NCBI GenBank assembly: GCA_963743305.1 | Contig: CAVUPH010000006.1 | Span: 160,001 to 224,000 of the forward strand | Source of the DNA: an uncultured delta proteobacterium | GTDB lineage: Bacteria > Desulfobacterota > RBG-13-43-22 | Reading direction: 5' to 3' | DNA: 64,000 nt | Shown: piece after piece, positions 834 to 48,839 of the stretch | Position numbering within the stretch: position 1 is the stretch's first letter | Layout of the letters: every line of letters starts with the position of its first letter | Position numbers and translations under genes: made by a program | The notes under the pieces: model-generated | Database searches by the model: none | What the model was told of the DNA's origin: nothing | The model's input: only the letters and a program-made list of their open reading frames with translations

Positions 834-1364
834 ATGGAAGTCAAAATCGGAGAGACCTTATTCTTTCTGGAGGAGGGTGACATAACCCGACAGGAAACCG
901 AGGCCATCGTTAACGCCGCCAATTCCCGCCTGGCCGGAGGAGGCGGGGTTGACGGGGCCATCCACCGCGCCGGTGGCCCGGCCATCATGGATGAATGCCG
1001 AAAAATCGGGGGCTGCCCCACCGGCCAAGCCGTCATCACCACCGGCGGAAAATTGAAGGCCCATCGCGTGATCCACACCGTGGGGCCTATTTATCGAGGC
1101 GGGACCCATGGAGAAGCCGACCTCCTGGCCAGCGCTTATCTCGAAAGCCTGAAGCTGGCTCGGAAAAACGGCATTCGCTCTCTGGCCTTTCCGTCGCTCA
1201 GCACCGGGGCTTATGGATACCCATTGAATGAGGCGGCGGGGATCGCCTTAAAAACGGTACTAGGGTTCATCAAAGCCGACCCGGTATTCGACCGGGTCGG
1301 CTTCGTCCTTTTCGGCCCTTCTTCCTATCAGGCCTATGAAAGGGCTCTAGCAAATTTGATTTAA
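834..1364 (+). CDS. Macro-domain O-acetyl-ADP-ribose deacetylase (YmdB-like)
   Basis: GDIT, IVNAANSRLAGGGGVDGAIH, VIHTVGP and STGAYGYP motifs. AGGAGAGG RBS before the ATG at 834. Confidence 0.92.
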   Translation: MEVKIGETLFFLEEGDITRQETEAIVNAANSRLAGGGGVDGAIHRAGGPAIMDECRKIGGCPTGQAVITTGGKLKAHRVIHTVGPIYRGGTHGEADLLASAYLESLKLARKNGIRSLAFPSLSTGAYGYPLNEAAGIALKTVLGFIKADPVFDRVGFVLFGPSSYQAYERALANLI

Positions 1365-1465
1365 AAGACGACTCTTCATCGGACGCCGTCCGGATAATTG
1401 TCGCGGGAGGATCTCAGAGAACCCCAATACCCGGTGAAGAAGAGGGGTTCTTTGATGGAGAAGTA

Positions 1466-1885
1466 CTACTTCCCACCGGCAAGTTTTATCTTTTCGGCCG
1501 AAGCCGGGGTAAGGGGCTTGTCGTCTGGTTTGACGTTGTTGGCCTGGAGGGCAAAGGAGATGATCTCCAGGTATTCATTGTCCTTCAAGCTGCCGGGCTT
1601 ATTCGCCGGCATTTTTTTCTTCGCGAACTCATAGGCCTGACCGGCTGTCTTCATTTTCGGTAAATATCCAGGACCGGCTACCGGAGAAACCTTAACGCCG
1701 GCCATTTTGCCGAATTGCTCGGGAACCGTGCCGCCCTCACCATTGGCCCCATGGCATACGGCACAATATTTACCATAAAGCTCCTTTCCCTTTGACGCCT
1801 GCTCAGGGGTATAGGCAAAGGTTGTTGCCACCACCAAAGCCGAAATCATGACACCTAGAATCAACTGCCAAATCTTGTGCGACAT
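1466..1885 (-). CDS. Monoheme cytochrome c, exported
   Basis: Signal peptide, CAVCH heme motif and a distal Met in KKMPANKPGSL. GGAGG RBS. Confidence 0.85.
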   Translation of the reverse strand: MSHKIWQLILGVMISALVVATTFAYTPEQASKGKELYGKYCAVCHGANGEGGTVPEQFGKMAGVKVSPVAGPGYLPKMKTAGQAYEFAKKKMPANKPGSLKDNEYLEIISFALQANNVKPDDKPLTPASAEKIKLAGGK

Positions 1886-1994
1886 GCTGTCCTCCTTTTT
1901 GATTTATGTTCAACAAAACGTTCAGAAACAGAAGAAATTGGCACTAGAGAAAAAACGATACGCAAAAACCTCCACATCGGATCGTCCCCCTCTA

Positions 1995-2243
1995 CTATCT
2001 TCTTCTATGTCTGTAACCTCCAGCGGATTCGCCGACTAAATATCCACCCAGGGCACCTATCCCCGCGCCAAGGGCAGCCCCTCCGAGGGTATTCCCCCCT
2101 ACCAAAGTACTGAACAAAGCCCCACCCCCCGCACCAATGGCTGCTCCGCTTAAGGTTCCCTGTTGCGTTCTAGACATCCCAACGCATCCGCTTAAGGCTA
2201 CCATAAGAACGAGAATAGTTACGGCAATAAAGATCCGTTTCAT
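1995..2243 (-). CDS. Glycine-zipper lipoprotein
   Basis: Lipobox LSGC followed by GAAIGAGGGA and GAALGAGIGALGG repeats. Confidence 0.8.
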   Translation of the reverse strand: MKRIFIAVTILVLMVALSGCVGMSRTQQGTLSGAAIGAGGGALFSTLVGGNTLGGAALGAGIGALGGYLVGESAGGYRHRRR

Positions 2244-2261
2244 TTTTCATCCCCCTTTGGT

Positions 2262-2726
2262 TTAGTTTTCGGGCCTCAATGGGCGCCCGGCGATCCCCGT
2301 GGTTATATTCGGCCTGACCACGGAGTGCCAGAGCACGCCGACCACGGGCTTATCCAAATGGTCCGGATTCGTTTGATAGTATTGGTCGATCAAGGCCACC
2401 GTTTGATTAATAGTAAGCGGCGTTTTATTGTACCCTTCGACGACTTTCGAGGAGAAATTGTCCCTTTTCAAGTCCGGATACTTATTCATTAAGTATTCTT
2501 CGATGGCTACCGTGTGCCAAACTCCCAAAATGAAAGCCATCTTGGAGTCTTCCGTCATCTTTTGCCAGAGCTCTCCGGTCAATACCGTCATGGCGAAGGT
2601 CTTTCCCATTTCTTTGGTCAAGCCCTTCTCCCCGCGCTCCGCGGCCGTTACGTATATCGAAGTTAAGGCGATTCCGATTACGGCGGCGGCCACCACCAAA
2701 TTCCTGGCCATTATTAATTTTCTCAT
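2262..2726 (-). CDS. Hypothetical exported protein
   Basis: 154-aa ORF with a signal-peptide-like N-terminus and a GGGAGG RBS. Confidence 0.7.
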   Translation of the reverse strand: MRKLIMARNLVVAAAVIGIALTSIYVTAAERGEKGLTKEMGKTFAMTVLTGELWQKMTEDSKMAFILGVWHTVAIEEYLMNKYPDLKRDNFSSKVVEGYNKTPLTINQTVALIDQYYQTNPDHLDKPVVGVLWHSVVRPNITTGIAGRPLRPEN

Positions 2727-2989
2727 GACTCCCTCCCCTGAAATTTTTGAAACCTCGCGGCTTTCTTTCCATAGAGAATGCTCATCGCCAGCCCTTGTGG
2801 ATCTTCGATTTATTCTACGATATTATTCTCTATGAATGGTCTTAGATAAATAACGGGAAGTACGTATTTTTCGAACAAATATTATGTATTTCACTGGCCC
2901 ATGGTTCAAGGCTCCAACTTTCGCTGCAAGGTGGACCGTCAAATCAGGTCAGAAGCGCTTAAGCCCTTTATTATCCCTGTTTTTTCTCC

Positions 2990-4594
2990 TTGACCCTTCT
3001 CAAGGCCTATTTTAAACTCTGCCCTAACCGAAAGAAATTCTTATCTAACAAATTGAAGAGACAGACTCATCCCATCTGGTCTTTAGAACCCGGCCAGGCC
3101 GTGCGGCCGGGACGGCCCCATATTATCCTGATTTTCCTCTGGACCAGTATCGCTCTGTTGGTTGGGGAATTGGGTACTTTTTCTATCCCTTTGGTTGAAC
3201 AAGCAAGTCTTTTCTGGCCGGCGATGGTCTTTCAAACTGTAGGCGGATTGTGGTTTGGAGGACTTGGAATTCTCTCCGCCATGATCTTTCCCCTCGTCTC
3301 CAATGCCCTGGGCGGGTTTCCCTGGCCCCAAAACCTAGCCTGGATCGCGGGCAACTTCATCCAGGGTGGATTATTGCGCTTCTATTTTCAATATAAAGGT
3401 TGGGATCCGTCTCTACCTACCGGCAAGGAGATCTGGGCCTTCATCTGGATCGGGGCCATCCTTTCCAATGTCCTGGGCGTGTTGGTCACCATGAGTATCT
3501 TGGGCTTGACTCCCTACGGGTTGCCTTGGTCCAGAAGCCTGACCTACTGTGCCACTTCCATTATCGGCAACGGCCTGCCCTGCATCCTGCTGGGCCTTCC
3601 CCTGTTGAAATATTTTTCACCTTTGGTCGTCAATTCTCCCCTCTTTTTCCCACGGTTATGGCTGACTAAAAGGTCCCCGGATCCGGCACCCGTTTCCTTC
3701 GGCGACTTCCCTATCGTTTTGAAACTGATGATAGGATTTTTTGCCGGGGGCTTTTTCCCCCTGGCCATCCTGGCGGCGTTTTCCGTATCGGAAGAGGAGC
3801 GTCAGTTTAACGTATTTCTAATCCTGGGTTTATTTTTGTGCCTCATTCTTTCAGGAGTTATTGCCAATCATATTAATACACCCCTTAACCGTATCAAGGA
3901 ACGTCTACGTCAAATCGGTGACGGGGACTTTAAAAAAGAGTTCAAGATTGAAAGCCGGGATGAACTGGGCAGGATTGGCGACGGCCTTCAAGAGATGGCC
4001 TTGAATTTGGCCCGGCTTTACGCCGAGCAGGAAGCGCTTTTCTTAGAGACGATCCTTTCCTTGGCCGAGGCCATTGATGCCCGCGATCCTTATACCCGGG
4101 GCCATTCCGATCGGGTCAGTCAGTACGCCTTGAGGACAGCCCAAGCCATGGGCCTTTCCGGAAAAGAGAGCACGGAGATTTACCAGGCGGCCATCCTCCA
4201 TGATATCGGTAAAATAGGAATACGGGAGGACGTTCTGAATTATGACGGCCCTCTGGATCCGGAGAAATACGCCCATATGAAGACCCACCCCGAGATCGGT
4301 GCTCGCATTCTGGGAGTCGTGAAGGATTTCGGGAAAATCCGTCTGATGGTGCGGGCCCATCACGAGCATTATGACGGCGGCGGGTACCCCGACGGATTGA
4401 AAGGCGGGCATACTCCTTTAGGGGCCAGGATCCTAGCCGTCGCCGATGTCTACGATGCCTTGACCACCGATCGTCCTTACCGGGTCGCCTGGAAGAAGGA
4501 AAAGGCATTGCAAACCATCCAGGAAAAAGCCGGGTCCCAATTTGATCCCCAGGTGGTATCCGTTTTCATCTCCATCATGACGGGATCGCAATAA
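2990..4594 (+). CDS. Membrane-bound HD-GYP c-di-GMP phosphodiesterase with a multi-TM (MASE1-like) sensor and HAMP domain; start uncertain
   Basis: Several hydrophobic helices, HAMP (SRDELGRIG), then DPYTRGHSDRV, LHDIGK, HHEHYDGGGYPDG and ADVYDAL. Confidence 0.88.
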   Translation: MTLLKAYFKLCPNRKKFLSNKLKRQTHPIWSLEPGQAVRPGRPHIILIFLWTSIALLVGELGTFSIPLVEQASLFWPAMVFQTVGGLWFGGLGILSAMIFPLVSNALGGFPWPQNLAWIAGNFIQGGLLRFYFQYKGWDPSLPTGKEIWAFIWIGAILSNVLGVLVTMSILGLTPYGLPWSRSLTYCATSIIGNGLPCILLGLPLLKYFSPLVVNSPLFFPRLWLTKRSPDPAPVSFGDFPIVLKLMIGFFAGGFFPLAILAAFSVSEEERQFNVFLILGLFLCLILSGVIANHINTPLNRIKERLRQIGDGDFKKEFKIESRDELGRIGDGLQEMALNLARLYAEQEALFLETILSLAEAIDARDPYTRGHSDRVSQYALRTAQAMGLSGKESTEIYQAAILHDIGKIGIREDVLNYDGPLDPEKYAHMKTHPEIGARILGVVKDFGKIRLMVRAHHEHYDGGGYPDGLKGGHTPLGARILAVADVYDALTTDRPYRVAWKKEKALQTIQEKAGSQFDPQVVSVFISIMTGSQ

Positions 4595-4885
4595 ACGGAC
4601 TCGTTCCCATCTCCTCTTTTTCAACTATCGGTATCACCGGATCCACCTGACCGTTCGATCTACCCCCGATAGCGATCGGCTATTTCCGGGGTCTCGGGTT
4701 GATGAGCCCTATCCCCCAAAGTATTGCCCTTTTTTTCAGGTTATCGGGGAAACGATGAGGCAGACTCACCTGGAGATTACCCCACCATGAAACAACCCTA
4801 AGTAACGATGCCGATCAAAAAGCCAAATTGCTATTCGGATAAAAATAAGATAATATCCTAATCGCTGAATCGACGAAGAGTCCAG

Positions 4886-6454
4886 GTGGTTTCGAGGGTG
4901 AAAATTAAACCGCAGGTTTGGTTTTTATTAGTGGCCTTTGGTTGGGGCGGGTTCCTGTTCATTCATCGGGCGCAGGCCCGGTCCGGCATTTCGTTAATCG
5001 AAAAAAAAATCTCGGCTCCGGTCTTAGCCGACACGGCGGATAATCGTGCGGGGAATTTCCTGGTCATTTTGAACAATCAACCGCAGGGGAAGTGGCCGGC
5101 CGGAATGGAAGGAGATCGAAAACAGAAAAGAAAAAAAATAGTCCAAATCCTGAGGCAGGCGGCGGGGTCCAGCCAGCCAGGGATCACAGCCGAACTGGAC
5201 CTTCTGGGGGCTCATTATCGCCCTCTCTGGATCATCAACGCCATTGCCGTCAAAGGGACCCGAGCGGTGGCGGAAACTATGGCGCTGCGGGAGGATGTCA
5301 CCCGGATCGAATCCGATCGGGCCTTCCCGGTTCTGCCGGAAAGGCCCGGGCTCACGCTGCCGGGCACTCCGAGTAGCCCACCCTGGAACATCCAGATGAT
5401 CAAGGCGCCGTTTCTTTGGGGATTGGGGTTTACCGGGGAGGGTACGGTTTACGCCAACGCCGATACCGGTGCCCAATGGGACCATCCGGCGTTGATAAAC
5501 AAATACCTGGGCTGGAACGGGCAGAGGGCAGATCACGAATATCACTGGTGGGATGCTATCCATGAGGACTTGAGCGGCAACGGGACCAATCCCTGCGGTT
5601 TTTCTTCGCCGGTCCCTTGTGATGATTACGGCCATGGGACCCACACCATGGGCATCGCGGTAGGCGATGACGGAGAAACCAATCAAATCGGCGTGGCCCC
5701 TGGGTCTAAGTGGATCTCCTGCCGAAACATGGAGGAGGGCTACGGAAGGCCTAGCACCTATCTGGAATGCTATCAGTTCTTCCTGGCGCCGACGGATTTG
5801 AATGGCTTGAACCCCGATCCGGAAAAAGCGCCCGAGGTGGTGGGGAATTCCTATAGCTGTTTTACCTCGGAAGGCTGTTCCCCTCATATCCTGCAACCGG
5901 CGCTGGAAATGCTGCGGGCGGCGGGCATTTTCATGGCGGCCTCGGCTGGCAACAAAGGTTCTTCTTGTGAGAGCATCGTGGATCCGCCGGGTCTGGAGGA
6001 CTCGGTAGTGACTGTTGGCGGGGTCAATTCCCTGGAGGGGATTTATGGCCCGAGCGGCCGGGGACCGGTTACGGTGGACGGCAGCAACCGCCTCAAGCCC
6101 GACCTGGTGGCCCCCGGAGAGGGGGTGCTTTCCAGTACCCCCGGAAACACCTATGCCGTTATGAGCGGCACCTCCATGGCAGTCCCCCACGTGGCCGGAG
6201 CAGTGGCCCTGCTCTGGTCGGCCTTTCCATATTTGGCCGGCCAGGTGGAACAAACGGAATCTATTTTAAAGCAGTCGGCTAAAAAAATTATAACGACCGA
6301 GACTTGCGGTGGGATACCGCCCGATCAGTTCCCCAATCCCGTCGTCGGCTCTGGACTGATCGATCTCCAGACGGCCTATGACTTAATCGTCAATCCGTTT
6401 GCCTACCGGACCTGTCTTCCCCTGATTATGGATGGGTATCAAAAAAGTCATTAA
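4886..6454 (+). CDS. Secreted S8 subtilisin-like serine peptidase (bacillopeptidase F-like)
   Basis: Catalytic triad motifs ADTGA, GHGTHTMG and SGTSMAVPHVAG. Signal peptide and propeptide present. Confidence 0.92.
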   Translation: MVSRVKIKPQVWFLLVAFGWGGFLFIHRAQARSGISLIEKKISAPVLADTADNRAGNFLVILNNQPQGKWPAGMEGDRKQKRKKIVQILRQAAGSSQPGITAELDLLGAHYRPLWIINAIAVKGTRAVAETMALREDVTRIESDRAFPVLPERPGLTLPGTPSSPPWNIQMIKAPFLWGLGFTGEGTVYANADTGAQWDHPALINKYLGWNGQRADHEYHWWDAIHEDLSGNGTNPCGFSSPVPCDDYGHGTHTMGIAVGDDGETNQIGVAPGSKWISCRNMEEGYGRPSTYLECYQFFLAPTDLNGLNPDPEKAPEVVGNSYSCFTSEGCSPHILQPALEMLRAAGIFMAASAGNKGSSCESIVDPPGLEDSVVTVGGVNSLEGIYGPSGRGPVTVDGSNRLKPDLVAPGEGVLSSTPGNTYAVMSGTSMAVPHVAGAVALLWSAFPYLAGQVEQTESILKQSAKKIITTETCGGIPPDQFPNPVVGSGLIDLQTAYDLIVNPFAYRTCLPLIMDGYQKSH

Positions 6455-27554: not shown

Positions 27555-28457
27555 TTAGCGGGTACGATCTCGAAGCTGCTGGATTAGCGGGGGTCCTTGG
27601 GCGAGATCCTGCAAATCAACTACCCCCAGAACGTATTTCCCGGAAGATTGCAGGCATACACCGCCATAAAGGGGGTCCCGGGCGCAAAGAATTTCACCGG
27701 AGGATTCCGGTTCCCTTTTCAGGGCGCCCCCCTTTTCTTTAAGGGCCTGTTCGTAGGCCTGTATCGTCTGGCGGGCTTCCGCGATCGATTCCTCCAGGAG
27801 AACAAAGATCCGGACCGGACGGCCGTCAAGGAGGGCCTGGGCGGTTAACCCTTTCTTGAAAAAGGGATACCCCAGGACGCTCTGGGGGATATATTTTTCG
27901 GTTTTGGGGATCAGGGCGGAAATCCCGAGTAATGTTAATTCCGGAGGGCTTTTGGATGAAGTCGGCAGATTCCTGGATATCAAACCGGCCAGGTTCAGAA
28001 AAACCGCCTGGTCTTGAGTGGCAGCACCGGAAGCATTGAGCTGAACAAAGTACCGGCCCTGGTAAAACATCAATTGCGACGGGCTGACAAAACCCTCGAT
28101 ACCCGCCTTTACCGGTTCGGCCGTCGGCTTACGATAGTTGGCGTAAATCCCGAAGGCTTCCAGGTCTGAACCCATCTCGTAGACATCGGCGGCAATACCC
28201 AGTTTTTCATTGCCGTCTTTTAAGTAAAGGCCGGCGGTCAGAATCTTAAAGCCGAACTGGAGATAGAGCTCGGCCTCCCCGTTGATATATTCGAAGAGGT
28301 CTTCCCCGGTGTATTTTTTGATTGGGCCTGCCAGTGCCCACCCGGGCAATAATCCGGAAAGCGGCAGTAGCCGCGTGTCGGCTTTCGCCTCCGGCAACAG
28401 CCCGATCCCTATCAGACAAAAAAAGAGTACCTGTATTATTCCTCGGATTTTCTTCAT
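27555..28457 (-). CDS. Exported hypothetical protein (DUF6599-like)
   Basis: Signal peptide, LFEYINGEAELY and AFGIY. Confidence 0.7.
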   Translation of the reverse strand: MKKIRGIIQVLFFCLIGIGLLPEAKADTRLLPLSGLLPGWALAGPIKKYTGEDLFEYINGEAELYLQFGFKILTAGLYLKDGNEKLGIAADVYEMGSDLEAFGIYANYRKPTAEPVKAGIEGFVSPSQLMFYQGRYFVQLNASGAATQDQAVFLNLAGLISRNLPTSSKSPPELTLLGISALIPKTEKYIPQSVLGYPFFKKGLTAQALLDGRPVRIFVLLEESIAEARQTIQAYEQALKEKGGALKREPESSGEILCARDPLYGGVCLQSSGKYVLGVVDLQDLAQGPPLIQQLRDRTR

Positions 28458-28492
28458 GGTGTCCGGTTGTTCTTCCGATTGGTTTCAGAGCG

Positions 28493-29662
28493 CTAGGCAA
28501 ATACCCGTTTGGCCCGCTCCAGCTTGGCCGGGATATCGATCCCGTTTACACAGGAAGCCGTACATTCCGAACAATCCAGACAGGACTTCAAGGAGGCCTG
28601 AGGGGGGATTTCCCGATAGGTATCCATGGCCAAGTCTAGACTGTCGTAGGCTTCGGCGTACATCAGGGAACGGTTGATGTCGCTGATGGCCACTCCGCGA
28701 GAACAGAATCCCTCGCAGCTTCCGCAGAACTGACAGTAATAAGGACTGATGGCCTGACCATACCTTTTCAGGATCTGTTCATCCGCTCGGGTCAGGGCCA
28801 TCCCCATGACGGCCAGATCCTCCCGGAGATGCGCGAGATCCTTCATCCCCGGGATGGCCGCCGTTATGTGGGTATCCTGCAAGGCCCACTTCAAAGCGGC
28901 CTGGTGTGGGCTGACCGGCCCCAGGGCCGAGGTCTGATACCCTCCGGCCTGGGTCTTCATGGCCACGATGCCGATCCCGGCCTGGGAGGCCCGGGCGATG
29001 GCTTGCTTGATTTCCGGGGGACTTTTAAAATTGTAGCCCACCAGGGCCACGTCGAAGAAGCGGTCCGGGTCGTCGGCCAGGGCATTGACGACTTCGGCTT
29101 GGTTGGTGTGGGTAGTCACCCCGAAAAACCGGACCTTGCCCTGCTTCCGCAATTGGACCAGGGCCTCCCGCACTTCCGGAAGGAAGGCCCGCTCTTTACT
29201 TTTGAGGCTATGGAGCTGGAGGACATCGAGGTAATCCGTCTGGAGCTCGGTAAGGCTCTCCTCCACGTCCCGAAAGATTTCTTTTTGGGTATCCGAGGTG
29301 GGTCGGGCTTTGGTGGCCAGATAGATTTTGTCTCGCCGCCCCTTGATGGCCTGGGCCACGATCCCCTCGTTCTTACCGTTCATGTAACGTCGGGCCGTAT
29401 CGATGTAGTTGATGCCCTGGTCCAGGCCGGCCCGGATGACTTCCGGCTCCGGCGTCAGCATGGCCCCGAAGCTGACCACCGTGATTTTCAGGCCGGTGCG
29501 GCCCAAGGTCCGGTAAACCGGGACGGCTTTTTCAGCCGAGGTCATCGAAACGCCCTCGGCAATTTCGTTTAATCCGGTGAGCCCCAGGGCTGCGGCGGCC
29601 CCTCCGCAAACACCCGCCTTGATAAATTGCCGACGGTTTATTTTTTTATCAATGTTTTCCAA
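28493..29662 (-). CDS. Aldo/keto reductase with twin-arginine leader and C-terminal Fe-S domain
   Basis: GGAGG plus TTG start at 29662, NRRQFIK, YRTLGRTG, YIDTARRY, CQFCGSCEGFC and CLDCSECTASC. Confidence 0.85.
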   Translation of the reverse strand: MENIDKKINRRQFIKAGVCGGAAAALGLTGLNEIAEGVSMTSAEKAVPVYRTLGRTGLKITVVSFGAMLTPEPEVIRAGLDQGINYIDTARRYMNGKNEGIVAQAIKGRRDKIYLATKARPTSDTQKEIFRDVEESLTELQTDYLDVLQLHSLKSKERAFLPEVREALVQLRKQGKVRFFGVTTHTNQAEVVNALADDPDRFFDVALVGYNFKSPPEIKQAIARASQAGIGIVAMKTQAGGYQTSALGPVSPHQAALKWALQDTHITAAIPGMKDLAHLREDLAVMGMALTRADEQILKRYGQAISPYYCQFCGSCEGFCSRGVAISDINRSLMYAEAYDSLDLAMDTYREIPPQASLKSCLDCSECTASCVNGIDIPAKLERAKRVFA

Positions 29663-29741
29663 AATAACCTCCGCAAATGCTCTCGAGTCGTCATTGCGAG
29701 GAGTCACTTAGGCGTGACGACAAAGTAATCCCTATTTCAGC

Positions 29742-30353: not shown

Positions 30354-31445
30354 TCAGGTCGCCGGCCCCAACTGGGCCAGGGAGCGGGTTCAACCCCCGC
30401 CCGAACAGGTGCCGGCTTCAATCGGCCAGGTCACCGCCTTGGACATGTGCCTCCCGCCCCAGCCCGGGATAAAGGCCGAAAACCTCCCGGCTACTCCGCC
30501 GGCCATAATCAACAAAATATGGTTCGGGGAGGATACCGCCCTGATCATAGTGGTTTCATCCGCCGGGACTAGCGGCGCTTCAATCAGGCCGCCCCGTTTA
30601 AGATCGGCCAGGGGTCGGCAGGCTCGTTCATAAAGAAACTGCCGGACCCGATCTTTCTGCCACCCGCCCTCAATCAGCGTCTGGTAATGTTCCCGGCAGA
30701 GGACCACCACCCCTTCCGTATCCCCCAACATATTAAAGCTGCCCAGGCTGCGCATGCGGTCGGCCATGGTCAGCAAGATGTTTTCCGGTTTCAAGGCCCC
30801 GTGATTCTGAACCTGGTTGGGTCCTTCCGCCGCGAAAACCGTCACCGTGGCGCTCTCCCGGGGAAAACCCCGGGTCACTTGCAACGGCTCCCAACGGCTG
30901 TCTTCCTCTTCGGCGATACAATAGGTGTATTTTCCCGGGTTCCCCAAGGTACCTCGATCGAATTCTCTCCCCCCCAGATTAAACAGGATCAGACGGATCG
31001 CCCGGCCGATGGTGGCGTTGGCCCGATGGCCCGGCCCGAAAACATTTTGGCCGCTGTTCAATCCGATCTCCCGGATGATCGGTCCGTTGACGATCATTAA
31101 AATGGCGGTCCCGGCCGTGGTGGCCGTTACACCGTGCAAACCGAAATCGGGGTGGCTCATAGCCCGCACCGCCGCCACCACCACCGGAAAATATTCCGGG
31201 AGGCACCCGGCCATGACGGCATTGATGGCCGCCTTTTCCGCCGTGAAGACCCGGTTTCGTTCCGGAATGGATCCCAAGATTTCCGTTGACGGCAGTTGGG
31301 CCGCCGCCAGAAAAGCCCTTACTTTTTCCTCGGTCGGCGGGATGATCGGGAGGCCGTCGGTCCAGCCTCGGTCGTAAAAGTGGTCCCGGGCCTGCTCGGC
31401 ATCACTGAACTCCAGCCTGTCGGCATTTCCCAAATTGATTAACAT
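30354..31445 (-). CDS. UGSC-associated protein (GWTDGLPIIPPT family) with candidate C-terminal Sec (CSGGG-U)
   Basis: GWTDGLPIIPPT, NAVMAGC and GHRANATIGRA. UGA at 30390-30392 is followed by a hairpin and 11 more codons. The CDS is secure; the extension is inferred. Confidence 0.8.
30362..30380 (-). promoter_or_regulatory. SECIS-like hairpin after CSGGG-UGA
   Basis: CTGGCCC-AGTTG-GGGCCGG, with the loop starting 16 nt after the UGA. Confidence 0.6.
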
Positions 31446-46054: not shown

Positions 46055-48839
46055 ATGGAAAAAGTTCACCTAACGATTAACGGTCAACAAATTGAAACCC
46101 TGGCTGGAAAAACCGTCTGGGAGGCGGCCACGGAGTCCGGGTTCACGATTCCTGTTCTGTGCCACCATCCGGCCCTCCCCCCGGACGGCGCCTGTCGAAT
46201 TTGCGTGGTGGAGAGAGAGCCGCAGGGTTCCCTGGAGACGGCCTGCAACTTTCCGGTTGAGGAAGGGTTGGTCCTCCAAACCCATTCGCCCAAAGTGATC
46301 GAGGCCCGGAAAGCCGTCCTGGAATTGTTGCTTTCCAATCACCCGCTGGACTGCTTGACCTGTGAAGCTACCGGGAACTGCCTCCTTCAGGACCTGGCCT
46401 ATGAATATGAGGTTAAAGGCACCCGTTTTACGGGAGAACGGCAACAGTTCCCCATCGACACCTCCAATCCCTTTATTCAAGTGGACCGCAATAAATGTAT
46501 TTTATGCCGTCGCTGTGTCCGGGCCTGCAAATATATAAACGGCGTCGAGGCGGTGAAAATCATCGAAAGGGGTTTCAACGCCGTCATCGCTTTTGGCGAG
46601 GACACCGAGGCCGGCATGGCCCAGAGCCCATGTGAGTTTTGCGGCAGTTGTCTGGCCATCTGTCCCACCGGCGCCCTGACGGCCAAGATGTCTCTCGGCC
46701 GAGGCCGGAACTGGGAATACCGGAGCGTCAAGACCACCTGTTCCTACTGCGGCGTCGGTTGCCAGCTTGATCTAAAGGTGAAAGATAATACCATCGTCCG
46801 AGTGGATTCCTCCTGGGGATCTCCGGCCAACCGCGGTTGGATGTGCGTCAAGGGCCGCTTTGGCTATGACTATGTCAGCCATCCCGATCGCCTGACCAAG
46901 CCCCGGGTGCGTAAGTATTTGTTGGAAGGAGAACGGACCGCCAAACGATTCGGCGATCCCTGGGTGGAAGTGGATTGGGACACGGCCCTGGACTTGACTG
47001 CCAATCGGTTACGGGCGATTCGCGACGAAGACGGCGGTGACCGGATCGGGGTCCTGACTTCGGCTAAGTGTTTGAATGAAGAAAATTATCTGATGAATAA
47101 ATTCGCCCGGCAGGTTTTAGGGACCAACAATATAGACCATTGCGCCCGCCTCTGACACAGCAGCACCGTGGCCGGTCTGGCCATTTCCTACGGTTCGGGC
47201 GCCATGTCCAATTCGATTGAAGATATTGCCGAACAGGCCCGAGCCTTTTTGGTGATCGGATCCAATACCACCGAACAGCATCCGGTGATCGGGTTCCGGG
47301 TCCGCCAGGCCGTCAGACAACGGGGAGCCGTGCTGATCCTGGCCGATCCCCGACGGATCCCCCTGGCGGATTTCGCGACCTTGCACCTGCGTCATCATCC
47401 GGGCACCGATATCGCCCTGGTGAATGGACTGATGCATATCATCCTCTCTCAGGGCTGGGAAGACCAATCCTTTATCGCCGAGCGGACGGAAGGTTTTGAG
47501 GAATTCAAGAAAGGGATCCTGACTTATACTCCGGAACATAGTGTCCCAGATTACCGGAGTCCCCCTGACACAACTCCAGGAGGCGGCCGAACTGATGGCC
47601 AAAAACCGACCCATGGCCGTACTCTGGGCCATGGGTATCACCCAGCATATCACCGGGGTCAGCAATGTCCAGACGCTGGCCAATCTACAAATGGTCTTGG
47701 GCAACATGGGTATCCCCGGAGGCGGCGTCAACCCCTTGCGAGGACAGAACAATGTCCAGGGGGCCTGCGACATGGGCGGTCTGCCCAATGTCTATCCGGC
47801 CTACCAGGCCGTGACCGACCCCGAGGTCCAGCGGAAATTTGAAGCCGCCTGGGGGGTCCCTTTGTCACCCAAGGTGGGGATGACGGTTACCGAGATGATG
47901 CCCGGCATTCCCGAGGGGAAGATCAAAGCCCTCTATATACTAGGCGAAGATCCGATAATGAGCGATGCGGATACGAATCATGTGCGTCATTGCCTCAAGG
48001 AATGTTCCCTGGTCATACTCCAGGAACTCTTTTCCTCCGAAACCGAACCCTACGCCGACATCCTCCTGCCGGGAACAAGTTTTGCTGAAAAAACAGGCAC
48101 CTTTACAAATACCGAACGACGGATCCAAATGGTCCGGAAGGCCATTGACTCCCCGGGAGAGGCTCGCGAGGATTGGCGCATCATCTCCGAGCTCGCCCGG
48201 CGCCTTCTCTCCCAAGGAGAGCGACGGGTGAGTGACGGGACCTACGGCGGATGGGAATATCAGCGCACCTCGGAAATTATGGAAGAGATCGCCGCTCTTT
48301 CCCCCAGTTATGCCGGGGTGACCCACGAGCGCCTGGAGCGGGGGGAAACCTTTCAGTGGCCGGTGAAGAACAGCACCGACCCCGGGACCCCGGTCCTGCA
48401 TGTGGGAAAATTCGCCCGTGGAGTGGGGAAATTTACGGTTAACGAAAATCTCCCGGCCGCAGAAATGCCGAGCCGTGAATATCCCTATCTTCTGAGCACC
48501 GGAAGGGTGCTCTACCACTGGCACGGCGGACAGATGTCCCGAAGGGCCAAGGGCCTGTTGGAAATCTATCCCCGGCCGTTGGTTGAACTCAATCCGGCCG
48601 ATGCCAAGAAGCTGGGTATGAATGGAAATAAACGGATTCGGGTCACTTCCCGAAGAGGAATGATCGAGAGTGATGCCTGGATCACCGACCGCGTCCCCCC
48701 GGGGATGGTCTATGGAAATTTTCATTTTCCGGAGGCCTCGGTTAACGAGTTGACCAACTCCGCCCTGGACCCGGTGTCCAAAATTCCAGAATACAAAATA
48801 TGCGCCGTGCGGGTCGAAGCGCTGAAGGAAACCAACTGA
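46055..48839 (+). CDS. fdhF: Selenocysteine-containing formate dehydrogenase alpha subunit with N-terminal Fe-S domains; Sec UGA at 47153-47155, frameshift near 47540
   Basis: 2Fe-2S and 4Fe-4S motifs, [41 protein letters not shown] and [10 protein letters not shown]. Three ORF-track pieces join into one gene. Confidence 0.92.
47168..47184 (+). promoter_or_regulatory. SECIS hairpin of FDH
   Basis: GTGGCC-GGTCT-GGCCAT, starting 12 nt after the UGA. Confidence 0.85.

Follow-up and report, generated by a model that had tools for sequence, protein, structure and literature searches.

The gene called here gene A, which lies on the minus strand of a 64,000-nt stretch of DNA from an uncultured delta proteobacterium (the window), is with good confidence read as a selenoprotein gene that annotation has truncated. 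The CxxGxU tail of its product is proposed to act as the redox arm, probably fed by thioredoxin, of a complex with the UGSC-family selenoprotein encoded next to it. Comparison of homologues suggests that the UGA now taken as the stop of gene A probably encodes selenocysteine (Sec). In the proposed mechanism, the UGA at 30392-30390 would be decoded as Sec with the aid of a hairpin 16 nt downstream, yielding a 363-aa protein whose disordered C-terminal tail contains C-S-G-G-G-U (CxxGxU). This protein would bind the UGSC selenoprotein (UxxC), which the adjacent downstream gene encodes; in the resulting complex the UGSC redox motif would lie on the part of the gene A surface that is best conserved, beside the invariant cysteine of a MAGC motif. 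The Cys/Sec tail would be a mobile redox arm that forms a selenenylsulfide and supplies the A-UGSC centre with reducing equivalents, the probable donor being thioredoxin. The features are located in Table 1.

Table 1. Positions of gene A, its proposed recoding signals and its neighbour within the window
Feature	Position	Strand	Remarks
Gene A (UGSC partner), proposed full-length selenoprotein CDS	30354..31445	minus	363 aa = 351 aa + Sec + 11 aa
Proposed Sec codon (UGA) of gene A, annotated as stop	30390..30392	minus	aligns with Cys of homologues
Post-Sec extension of gene A, 11 codons, TRSLAQLGPAT	30357..30389	minus	
bSECIS-like hairpin, CUGGCCC / loop AGUUG / GGGCCGG	30362..30380	minus	energies, model fit and controls in text
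Proposed true stop of gene A, second in-frame TGA	30356-30354	minus	
UGSC-family selenoprotein gene, 174 aa	29742..30266	minus	Sec UGA 29984-29982, motif GD-U-GSC

Reading frame and family of gene A

The annotated ORF of gene A (30390..31445, minus strand) encodes 351 aa and ends ...EAGTCSGGG-TGA, its last codons being TGT TCG GGC GGG GGT TGA (C-S-G-G-G-stop). Past this TGA the frame continues as ACC CGC TCC CTG GCC CAG TTG GGG CCG GCG ACC before the second TGA is reached. The initial annotation, which had described this ORF, the TRSLAQLGPAT-TGA that follows it and a hairpin loop 16 nt downstream, is confirmed on the minus strand. In an AlphaFold model the tail is disordered, with pLDDT below 50 for residues 345-363.

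Protein searches place gene A in a large family of homologues, and C81 and C176 are invariant in their alignment (A1). No Pfam or NCBIfam model matches gene A, with 0 matches even at E values up to 10. The same search, again at E up to 10, found no match to the UGSC family models NF041046 and PF24696; thus, gene A is not itself a member of the UGSC family. A sequence profile search of the PDB gave nothing below E 0.2, and in a Foldseek search of the PDB with the gene A model no match reached E 0.001. The top-ranking Foldseek matches were chains of class I fumarate hydratase (E 0.01, TM 0.24-0.28), and the idea of a fumarase-like Fe-S enzyme was dropped because these matches are too weak. A search of the ESM Atlas returned unnamed clusters and one cluster named "Thioredoxin family protein" that lacks a common Pfam domain.

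All of the database entries encountered for the family are 345-351 aa long and are named "hypothetical protein". A cluster look-up found no family member named as a selenoprotein and no longer, read-through form. Within its available part, a 2026 catalogue of 119 selenoprotein families has no entry for gene A; together with the lack of a Pfam or NCBIfam model, this agrees with the earlier view that the family is undescribed as a selenoprotein. The CxxxxU tail motif was not found in the literature searched, although an earlier mention of gene A as the UGSC partner may exist elsewhere.

Cysteine at the UGA position in homologues

A selenoprotein can be recognized by an in-frame UGA that aligns with a Cys of its homologues, and gene A has such a UGA. 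In alignment A1 the UGA column is occupied by Cys in three proteins that read on past it: P0009 (..SCSGDVC-EIPGFQLEPYKLTKP), P0010 (..SCSGDIC-ALPGLQLEPFKLT) and P0037 (..SCSDGTC-DV). Counted in the register of the gene A extension TRSLAQLGPAT, position +6 is Q, +7 is hydrophobic and +9 is P in both P0009 and P0010. All three proteins are nested in a clade of 39 rows (SH-aLRT 95), and 32 of these rows, the window included, stop four residues past a Cys. More distant relatives also have CxxGxC tails (L023, SCVEGTCEL; L032, ACVDGTCAL; P0161, VCVDGTCYL; L081, DCADGVCAL), and in L073 and L074 just the CxxxxC spacing is retained (CGPDSC). The occurrence of CxxGxC endings as counterparts of CxxGx-UGA is as the initial annotation predicted. 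Of the 23 candidates in a protein search restricted to the tail, 10 had an E value no higher than 10; no read-through was seen among these 10, and the search gave no new Cys forms.

The position of the end is also shared. Among the 120 best gene A homologues (protein sequences), 41 have a tail that ends C-x4-stop, and 105 end 34-36 residues past a GGxAGxFS motif. Other homologues comprise 31 with a C-x2-stop ending and about 40 that end ..TGFT or ..TGGT. In the 46 distant loci among those listed, the end lies 27-43 residues past this motif and the stops are mixed (TGA 25, TAG 12, TAA 9). However, 43 of the 120 best homologues have the same end position with no Cys in their last 8 residues, so the fixed C-terminus could be a family property unrelated to Sec. 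This would suit a reading in which the UGA is a true stop. In such a case, ...CSGGG would bear the terminal free carboxylate, the tail would have just one Cys, and the hairpin would be an intercistronic RNA structure, serving, for example, in mRNA stabilisation or in translation coupling ahead of UGSC. Every database entry is annotated in this way, and the extension has few residues, many of them small. Nevertheless, a true stop leaves unexplained why nested homologues have Cys at the stop position and continue past it into a related extension, and why a Cys is found so often exactly four residues before the stop; this reading is judged improbable.

The hairpin downstream of the UGA

The gene A hairpin has a stem of 7 pairs, one of them U-G. 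Its 5-nt loop, AGUUG, begins 16 nt past the UGA and has G at position 2 and U at position 3. The bare hairpin has an energy of -12.5 kcal/mol, and in context the value is -13.5 to -14.6 kcal/mol. The published bSECIS model specifies a 3-9 nt loop on a 4-16 bp stem, a G at loop position 1-2, a spacing of 16-37 nt, and an energy at or below -7.5 kcal/mol. The hairpin falls within all four published constraints, with its spacing at the allowed minimum (16 nt).

A hairpin with a suitable loop at a suitable distance is rare: when the window was scanned with a simple, ungapped implementation of the published model, 48 of its 1903 TGA triplets fit (2.5%), and 14 (0.7%) reached the stricter level that the gene A hairpin reaches. 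The window has 20 TGA-terminated ORFs that are 150 aa or longer, and a fit is seen in two of them, gene A and the Sec site of an FdhA-like gene. The scan recovers the Sec sites of both the UGSC and the FdhA-like gene of the window and, among the loci listed, 50 of 69 true UGSC Sec sites. For distant gene A homologues, 0 of 40 terminal TGAs fit among the loci listed, and a SECIS-type loop at minimum spacing in gene A, set against these, is a further observation that a true stop leaves unexplained. A scan for terminators and promoters found no terminator-like site at the hairpin, which also speaks against a true stop followed by an ordinary RNA structure. In favour of a true stop, the fold energy is unexceptional relative to dinucleotide shuffles (z -0.69, -0.97 and -1.67), because the region is GC-rich. 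Rfam, searched with the whole window, matched just a tRNA-His, with no SECIS or tRNA-Sec match; the SECIS result says little, since Rfam presumably has no general bacterial SECIS family.

A second alternative, rated as less probable again, is that the UGA has a dual use. It would mostly terminate translation, with Sec inserted only when selenium is present, and a short, thiol-only form would coexist with a long, Sec-containing form. Sec insertion in bacteria competes with release factor 2, which would permit this outcome, and because the tail is disordered, the short form would lose none of the folded domain. However, the sequence offers nothing that separates dual use from plain Sec decoding; the distinction is a matter of efficiency.

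A close relative of gene A

L001 is the only close DNA relative among the matches listed (the genome scan gave mostly 41-52% relatives), so that the TGA is seen in the DNA of two gene A sequences among these matches, the window and L001. The gene A of L001 ends CTGGV-TGA-TTTLAQVGS-TAA, with the TGA at the same place and both the frame and LAQ-x-G kept. Its hairpin has the same spacing, a loop of AGGUG and one G-C to G-U change. It is weak (-7.8 kcal/mol, 5 bp), being missed by the ungapped scan and passing the published model marginally. The hairpin and the frame of the extension are kept between the window and L001 at ~80% protein identity, a similarity that may be due to a recent common ancestor and not to selection.

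The gene A of L001 is disrupted, its coding sequence being split between two frames (2895-3503 and 3610-3798). Such a broken copy, and the single step from TGC or TGT to TGA, would fit a tail that is a remnant, an ancestral CxxGxC having received a TGA nonsense mutation at its second Cys codon with the downstream similarity now decaying, but the truncation would have to persist across the clade down to ~65% identity while the Cys at -5 was conserved, and the retained hairpin and extension frame make this origin very unlikely indeed.

Decoding of the UGA as Sec is the preferred reading, for which sequence comparison provides the Sec/Cys alignment, the fit to the SECIS model and the pairing of gene A with UGSC.

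The UGSC neighbour and the use of Sec

The gene next to gene A scores 124.5 bits against NF041046, for which the cut-off is 125, and matches PF24696 with E 1.1e-48; a hairpin of the bSECIS model is present at its Sec site. The FdhA-like gene has a Sec-type in-frame TGA (CARL-U-HSS). Judged from the UGSC and FdhA-like genes, the organism is a user of Sec; the 64-kb window contains no tRNA-Sec and no sel genes. The initial annotation had counted three other SECIS candidates besides that of gene A; these two genes provide the two other Sec sites found in the window.

UGSC and gene A are adjacent in 71 of the 80 loci among those listed, and they are fused in the proteins P0127, P0133 and P0205. 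This pairing marks gene A as the obligate partner of UGSC, with a fold that has no PDB relative, and the partner is probably itself a selenoprotein in some lineages. Many UGSC genes have a UxxCxxC motif. In Foldseek searches the UGSC model matched generic flavodoxin-like or receiver-like alpha/beta folds (TM 0.3-0.58), with no thioredoxin-fold match and no match to GrdB or PrdB.

According to the available parts of the papers concerned, UGSC has been on record since 2007-2008 as an abundant selenoprotein without a known function (PMC1976440, PMC2398784) and is still "uncharacterized" in a 2026 review (PMC13188914). The name "UGSC" is absent from the main text and one supplement of BSepDB. A fusion of UGSC with a conserved, Cys-bearing domain of unknown function, "Unknown_1", has been described (Zhang and Gladyshev 2008, PMC2398784) and fits the fused A-UGSC proteins; Unknown_1 may correspond to gene A. 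In the available part of that paper, no statement was found that the UGSC partner itself carries Sec.

The predicted A-UGSC complex and its thioredoxin neighbourhood

The structure of the complex was predicted for the natural all-Cys gene A-UGSC pair of L073; another natural all-Cys pair is found on a Roseovarius plasmid. The prediction has an ipSAE of 0.74 (best control 0.00), a mark reached by 116 of 157 solved complexes and by 2 of 215 mismatched pairs; at least 88% of contacts are shared between runs, and the partner pLDDT is at least 88. The interface includes UGSC residues 97-99 (C/U-G-S) and, on gene A, residues 63-71 beside Cys74, which corresponds to C81 of the window. Thus, in the model the UGSC redox motif is placed directly against the conserved gene A surface beside MAGC, and gene A is predicted to bind the UGSC product via conserved redox residues. 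Modelling of the pair had been proposed in the initial annotation, and for this all-Cys pair it does predict binding.

The tail of gene A is not among the confident contacts of the L073 model, so the model does not support a role as an arm. It had been suggested earlier that the tail shuttles electrons between the UxxC protein and the MAGC Cys. The Sec tail of that proposal is supported by the Cys-aligned homologues, the fixed end, the bSECIS fit with its controls, and the apparently conserved extension. The shuttle is putative; in the model the UGSC motif lies directly beside MAGC. For this reason, the tail may link the pair to an outside reductant (e.g. thioredoxin) rather than link the two proteins, and we infer that it functions as a mobile redox arm.

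A tblastn search of plasmids with gene A gave 24 records, all below 45% identity, which were used for gene context. On two plasmids, genes for thioredoxin reductase and thioredoxin flank the A-UGSC pair. Among the genome loci listed, 4 of 80 also have a trxA or trxB match in their flanking DNA. In L003, L005 and L010 trxA is found ~0.4-1.2 kb beyond the UGSC gene, and in L056 trxB, cut by the end of the locus, is ~1.65 kb from gene A. It is this neighbourhood, taken by itself, that suggests a link of the A-UGSC pair to thioredoxin.

Comparison with known redox systems

Thioredoxin reductase carries electrons between its centres by means of a flexible C-terminal Gly-Cys-Sec-Gly arm that forms a selenenylsulfide. 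The proposed gene A tail is similar in that a flexible C-terminus would present a Cys/Sec pair. However, Cys and Sec are adjacent in thioredoxin reductase and would be spaced as CxxxxU in gene A. In addition, thioredoxin reductase has a flavoprotein disulfide reductase fold, a domain that gene A lacks: the best PDB thioredoxin reductase match to gene A has E 0.23 over 57 residues, and gene A has neither a Pfam domain nor an adjacent Cys-Sec arm. Class Ia ribonucleotide reductase has a C-terminal CxxxxC tail that is reduced by thioredoxin. The Cys forms of gene A (CxxGxC) share this spacing, the tail is disordered, and thioredoxin-system genes lie beside some A-UGSC pairs; the folds, however, are unrelated, and we know of no Sec form of the ribonucleotide reductase tail.

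Among the bacterial selenoproteins whose Sec is C-terminal or nearly so are UXX-star, KCU-star and the Cys-Cys-COOH SaoC (Table 1 in the available part of PMC13188914). As described there, these resemble the proposed gene A selenoprotein in that Sec lies a few residues from the end and annotation truncates the protein; with Sec so placed, the SECIS runs into or past the true stop. They differ from gene A in belonging to other families with the motifs CU or UXX, and among those described none has CxxxxU and none matches gene A (0 NCBIfam matches). The same source describes GrdA/GrdB and PrdB/PrdC as two-selenoprotein reductases, the GrdB motif being UxxCxxC (PMC13188914). As far as that description goes, gene A and UGSC are like these in being adjacent selenoprotein genes that apparently form one thiol/selenol redox enzyme. 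Neither gene A nor UGSC matches PF04723 or PF07355 (GrdA, GrdB, PrdB) at E up to 10, and fold searches with the two gave no Grd or Prd match.

Significance

A wider reading, put forward tentatively and with rather less than even confidence, is that gene A and UGSC together make up an unrecognised but widespread two-subunit thiol/selenol reductase with a new fold, present in bacteria and also in haloarchaea, where it is all-Cys. The Desulfobacterota version would have Sec in each of its two subunits. UGSC would contribute the catalytic UxxC at the interface, and from gene A would come the site for the substrate (C81, C176) as well as a swinging arm, CxxGxU, recharged by thioredoxin. Homologues that share the same end with a "C-x2-stop" (..TCGT) or a "no-Cys" (..ATGFT) tail would then also be Sec proteins.

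If this is true, the gene A family would rank among the larger selenoprotein families that await annotation, and UGSC, prominent among the selenoproteins of aquatic metagenomes, would gain its first functional context. A partner, its probable Sec and predicted binding through redox residues together offer a concrete enzyme to test. Gene callers and RefSeq truncate the gene A family, and a Sec-flagged family model would correct many annotations.

The C-terminal end of gene A and its homologues

The initial annotation described a 351-aa open reading frame, here called gene A, whose terminal UGA is followed by an open frame, a hairpin, and the gene for the selenoprotein UGSC. All of these, including the ORF end, can be located in the window, and that description is accurate (Table). 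The UGSC gene (174 codons) starts about 90 nt beyond the gene A hairpin and matches the UGSC family (PF24696, E 1.1e-48; NF041046, 124.5 bits with a cut-off of 125). If the UGA is read as selenocysteine (Sec), gene A would encode 363 aa; the AlphaFold model of the protein has a mean pLDDT of 81.6 and a disordered stretch at residues 345-363.

Table. Features of gene A, the neighbouring UGSC gene, and two plasmid-borne relatives of the gene pair
Feature	Position	Strand	Remarks
Gene A ORF, 351 codons	30390..31445	-	C-terminal end ...WPIEAGTCSGGG, then TGA
First TGA of gene A (proposed Sec codon)	30392-30390	-	read from sequence
Extension TRSLAQLGPAT, 11 codons, same open frame	30389-30357	-	translation
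Second TGA of gene A frame	30356-30354	-	read from sequence
Hairpin CUGGCCC/GGGCCGG, 7 bp, 5-nt loop AGUUG	30380-30362	-	loop begins 16 nt after first UGA
In-frame TGA of UGSC gene, motif GD-U-GSC	29984-29982	-	translation
All-Cys gene A/UGSC pair, apparent operon with trxB	L081 (Roseovarius plasmid) 2486-5297		
All-Cys gene A/UGSC pair, apparent operon with trxB and trxA	L082 (Arthrobacter plasmid) 1156-4330		

By the standard logic of pairing Sec with Cys and finding a SECIS element, gene A is a candidate new selenoprotein family. Table 1 of a 2026 review (PMC13188914) comprises 119 families, UGSC included, and the motif CxxxxU is absent from all of them. Every entry in that table carries a domain identifier, mostly from Pfam, NCBIfam or TIGRFAM, and none of those models hits gene A. 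A few entries carry cd or PTHR identifiers instead; compared with gene A by name only, they belong to families called thioredoxin-like, copper-chaperone, BtuF or Fe-S (PMC13188914). Full-text literature searches, whose coverage of recent selenoprotein papers is incomplete, gave no match to "CxxxxU" or "UGSC family".

A protein search with the read-through form of gene A yielded 7972 matches among 8000 scored candidates, and among cluster representatives HMMER found 5309 at E <=0.001. No Pfam or NCBIfam model was found for these homologues (NCBIfam release 20.0 has none matching gene A), and those examined are named "hypothetical protein", except for a small number with automatically assigned names (for example "Thioredoxin" or "M15 family metallopeptidase"). 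Larger homologues (P0126, P0134, P0136, P0138, P0145, P0175) include proteins of ~710-740 aa that carry the gene A domain in two tandem copies; forms of 420-560 aa have extra N-terminal regions.

Among the best 120 of the 7972 homologues, on which all tail counts rest, 41 have Cys exactly four residues before the end (CSGGV, CAGGT, CKGGT, CTGGG and others), 2 have it three residues before the end, and 31 two residues before (..TCGT). Another 43, mostly ..ATGFT, lack Cys in the last eight residues. The remaining 3 read on past the position of the UGA, with the tails ..SCSGDVC-EIPGFQLEPYKLTKP (P0009), ..SCSGDIC-ALPGLQLEPFKLT (P0010), and ..SCSDGTC-DV (P0037), and in the protein alignment the second Cys of each falls in the column of the window UGA. 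A tree was built from the gene A core with tails removed (119 rows: the 120 homologues minus two shorter than 330 aa, plus the window). The three Cys forms are nested in a clade of 39 rows (SH-aLRT 95). In 32 of these, the window among them, the stop comes four residues past a Cys; on these sequences, this is the usual pattern of Sec/Cys interchange. The window extension itself is related to that of the Cys forms: counted from the Sec/Cys position, both carry Q at +6 and P at +9, with a hydrophobic residue at +7. More distant relatives have CxxGxC followed by two residues and an ordinary stop (SCVEGTCEL-TAG in L023, ACVDGTCAL-TGA in L032, VCVDGTCYL in P0161, and DCADGVCAL-TAA in the Roseovarius plasmid copy); loci L073 and L074 have CGPDSCEI... 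This gives a tail consensus of C-x-x-G-x-[C/U].

Among the best 120 homologues the protein end is unusually rigid in position: 105 finish 34-36 residues past the start of the GGxAGxFS motif. At 46 distant loci the spacing from motif to end ranges over 27-43 residues, and all three stop codons occur (25 TGA, 12 TAG and 9 TAA). In the P0040-P0121 range, 31 ..TCG[TNAS]-stop homologues and about 40 ..TG[FG]T-stop homologues end in the alignment column of the window UGA. The ..TCGT-stop and ..ATGFT-stop tails can be read in two ways: the stop may be another Sec codon, giving CxxU or a lone U, or it may be a genuine end. The second reading would weaken the argument from a "fixed" end, leaving those from the Cys alignment and the SECIS unaffected.

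The SECIS-like hairpin

The folding energy of the gene A hairpin does not stand out against dinucleotide shuffles (z -0.69 with 56 nt, -0.97 with 43 nt, and -1.67 with the 25-nt core); GC-rich DNA leads one to expect as much. The more telling measure is the share of UGAs that have, downstream, a hairpin fitting the published bSECIS model: a loop of 3-9 nt, a stem of 4-16 bp and a UGA-to-loop distance of 16-37 nt (PMC13188914, section 5), with G as the first or second loop base, in most cases with G or U next to it, and an energy of <= -7.5 kcal/mol (PMC13188914). With a simple, ungapped implementation, 48 of the 1903 TGA triplets in the window fit (2.5%), and 14 (0.7%) reach the stricter level (>=6 bp, <= -12 kcal/mol) that the gene A hairpin attains. 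Among the 20 window ORFs that end in TGA and are 150 aa or longer, the model fits two: gene A and an FdhA-like molybdoenzyme, the latter at a Sec site of known type. The scan also recovers the UGSC Sec site of the window. In the fetched loci, it fits 50/69 UGSC Sec-TGA sites and 0/40 TGA codons that end gene A homologues with unrelated tails. Given this rarity and these controls, the hairpin is informative. A terminator scan found no terminator-like site coinciding with it.

The FdhA-like molybdopterin oxidoreductase (46055-48839, + strand) has an in-frame TGA at 47153-47155 (CARL-U-HSS) with a bSECIS-model hairpin. Its Molybdopterin domain ends at about profile position 192 in this frame and resumes in another (ORF 47541..48839), which implies a frameshift or an assembly error near 47.5 kb.

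Among the 80 genome loci listed in the DNA comparison, L001 alone is close (a Thermodesulfobacteriota MAG, 75% identity). Its gene A tail reads ..GGGCTGGV-TGA-TTTLAQVGS-TAA and is followed by its UGSC gene. The hairpin (GGCCC / AGGUG / GGGUC) keeps the 16-nt spacing and G at loop position 2, with one G-C pair changed to G-U; it is weak (-7.8 kcal/mol) and is missed by the ungapped scan. Gene A lies here in two frames (2895-3503 and 3610-3798) with ~190 nt missing, either an assembly artefact or gene decay, and is deposited as a 202-aa fragment (P0288). L001 gives the picture expected of Sec reading, though in a single sequence with a weak hairpin and a broken gene.

Pairing of gene A with UGSC

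In 71 of the 80 listed loci the flanks include a UGSC gene, nearly always directly downstream of gene A. The U position of 73 UGSC matches is TGA in 70 and Cys in 3, the latter from a Rhizobiaceae MAG, a Novosphingobium MAG, and the haloarchaeon Natrialba. Natural gene A-UGSC fusions also occur (P0127, and P0133 and P0205, both cut at the UGSC Sec). These fit the "UGSC/Unknown_1 fusion" mentioned in PMC2398784.

Haloarchaea carry the pair, often on megaplasmids (L079, Natrialba asiatica; plasmid matches H2, H4, H9-H11, H15-H17, these plasmid copies being detected as gene A matches only), which takes its range beyond Sec-using bacteria. Many UGSC genes in L002-L080 read U-G-S-C-S-S-C, that is UxxCxxC, the motif given for GrdB in the 2026 review (PMC13188914); the window copy reads UGSCSSG. 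Downstream of UGSC, both the window (27555-29707, - strand) and L001 (4390-5538 and beyond) have an aldo/keto reductase gene whose product has a 4Fe-4S dicluster domain and a TAT signal, followed by a gene for a DUF6599 protein.

The gene order is LysR - gene A - UGSC - trxB on the Roseovarius plasmid and trxB - trxA - gene A - UGSC on the Arthrobacter plasmid. A trxA or trxB match is present in the flanks of 4/80 listed genome loci: trxA lies about 0.4-1.2 kb past UGSC in L003, L005 and L010, and in L056 trxB lies ~1.65 kb from gene A and runs off the end of the locus. These neighbours point towards thiol redox chemistry, with the thioredoxin system as the source of electrons. The Arthrobacter UGSC has a C-terminal extension of ~100 aa with CSDC, and its gene A is without a tail Cys.

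A predicted A-UGSC complex

The natural all-Cys pair of L073, folded with alignments, gave an ipSAE of 0.74 (three runs: 0.73, 0.76, 0.74) versus 0.00 for the best control; the ipSAE mark is attained by 116/157 solved complexes and 2/215 mismatched pairs, a calibration that is only approximate with user-supplied alignments. At least 88% of the contacts agree across runs, and partner pLDDT is at least 88. PDB searches by sequence profile and fold found no solved complex resembling A-UGSC, so a score owed to memorised structures seems unlikely; they gave no sequence or fold relative of gene A either. UGSC is modelled (pLDDT 93.5) as a generic three-layer alpha/beta fold with Sec at a helix start. 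The prediction supports binding of gene A to UGSC.

On the UGSC side, the confident interface of the L073 model comprises the N-terminal strand (1-11) and the redox motif 97-99 (C/U-G-S); on the gene A side, it comprises the invariant PPT motif (29-32) and residues 63-71, 101-103 and 145-160. Shortly after residues 63-71 comes the invariant cysteine of MAGC, which is Cys74 in L073 and C81 in the window. Since both the PPT motif and the MAGC-proximal residues lie in this interface, the model predicts that the most conserved residues of the gene A family bind UGSC and lie opposite its Sec. The C-terminal tail is absent from the confident contacts of this model.

In the preferred reading, A-UGSC would be a two-subunit reductase with the flexible CxxGx[C/U] tail as its electron-entry arm, by analogy with the CxxxxC tail of class Ia ribonucleotide reductase and the Cys-Sec tail of thioredoxin reductase. 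The initial annotation had the tail shuttling electrons between the UxxC of UGSC and the MAGC of gene A. We keep the electron arm as an inferred role and drop that link, because the model places the UGSC motif and the MAGC region in direct contact. Gene A supplies a predicted partner, and a testable complex, for UGSC, a major selenoprotein long unexplained.
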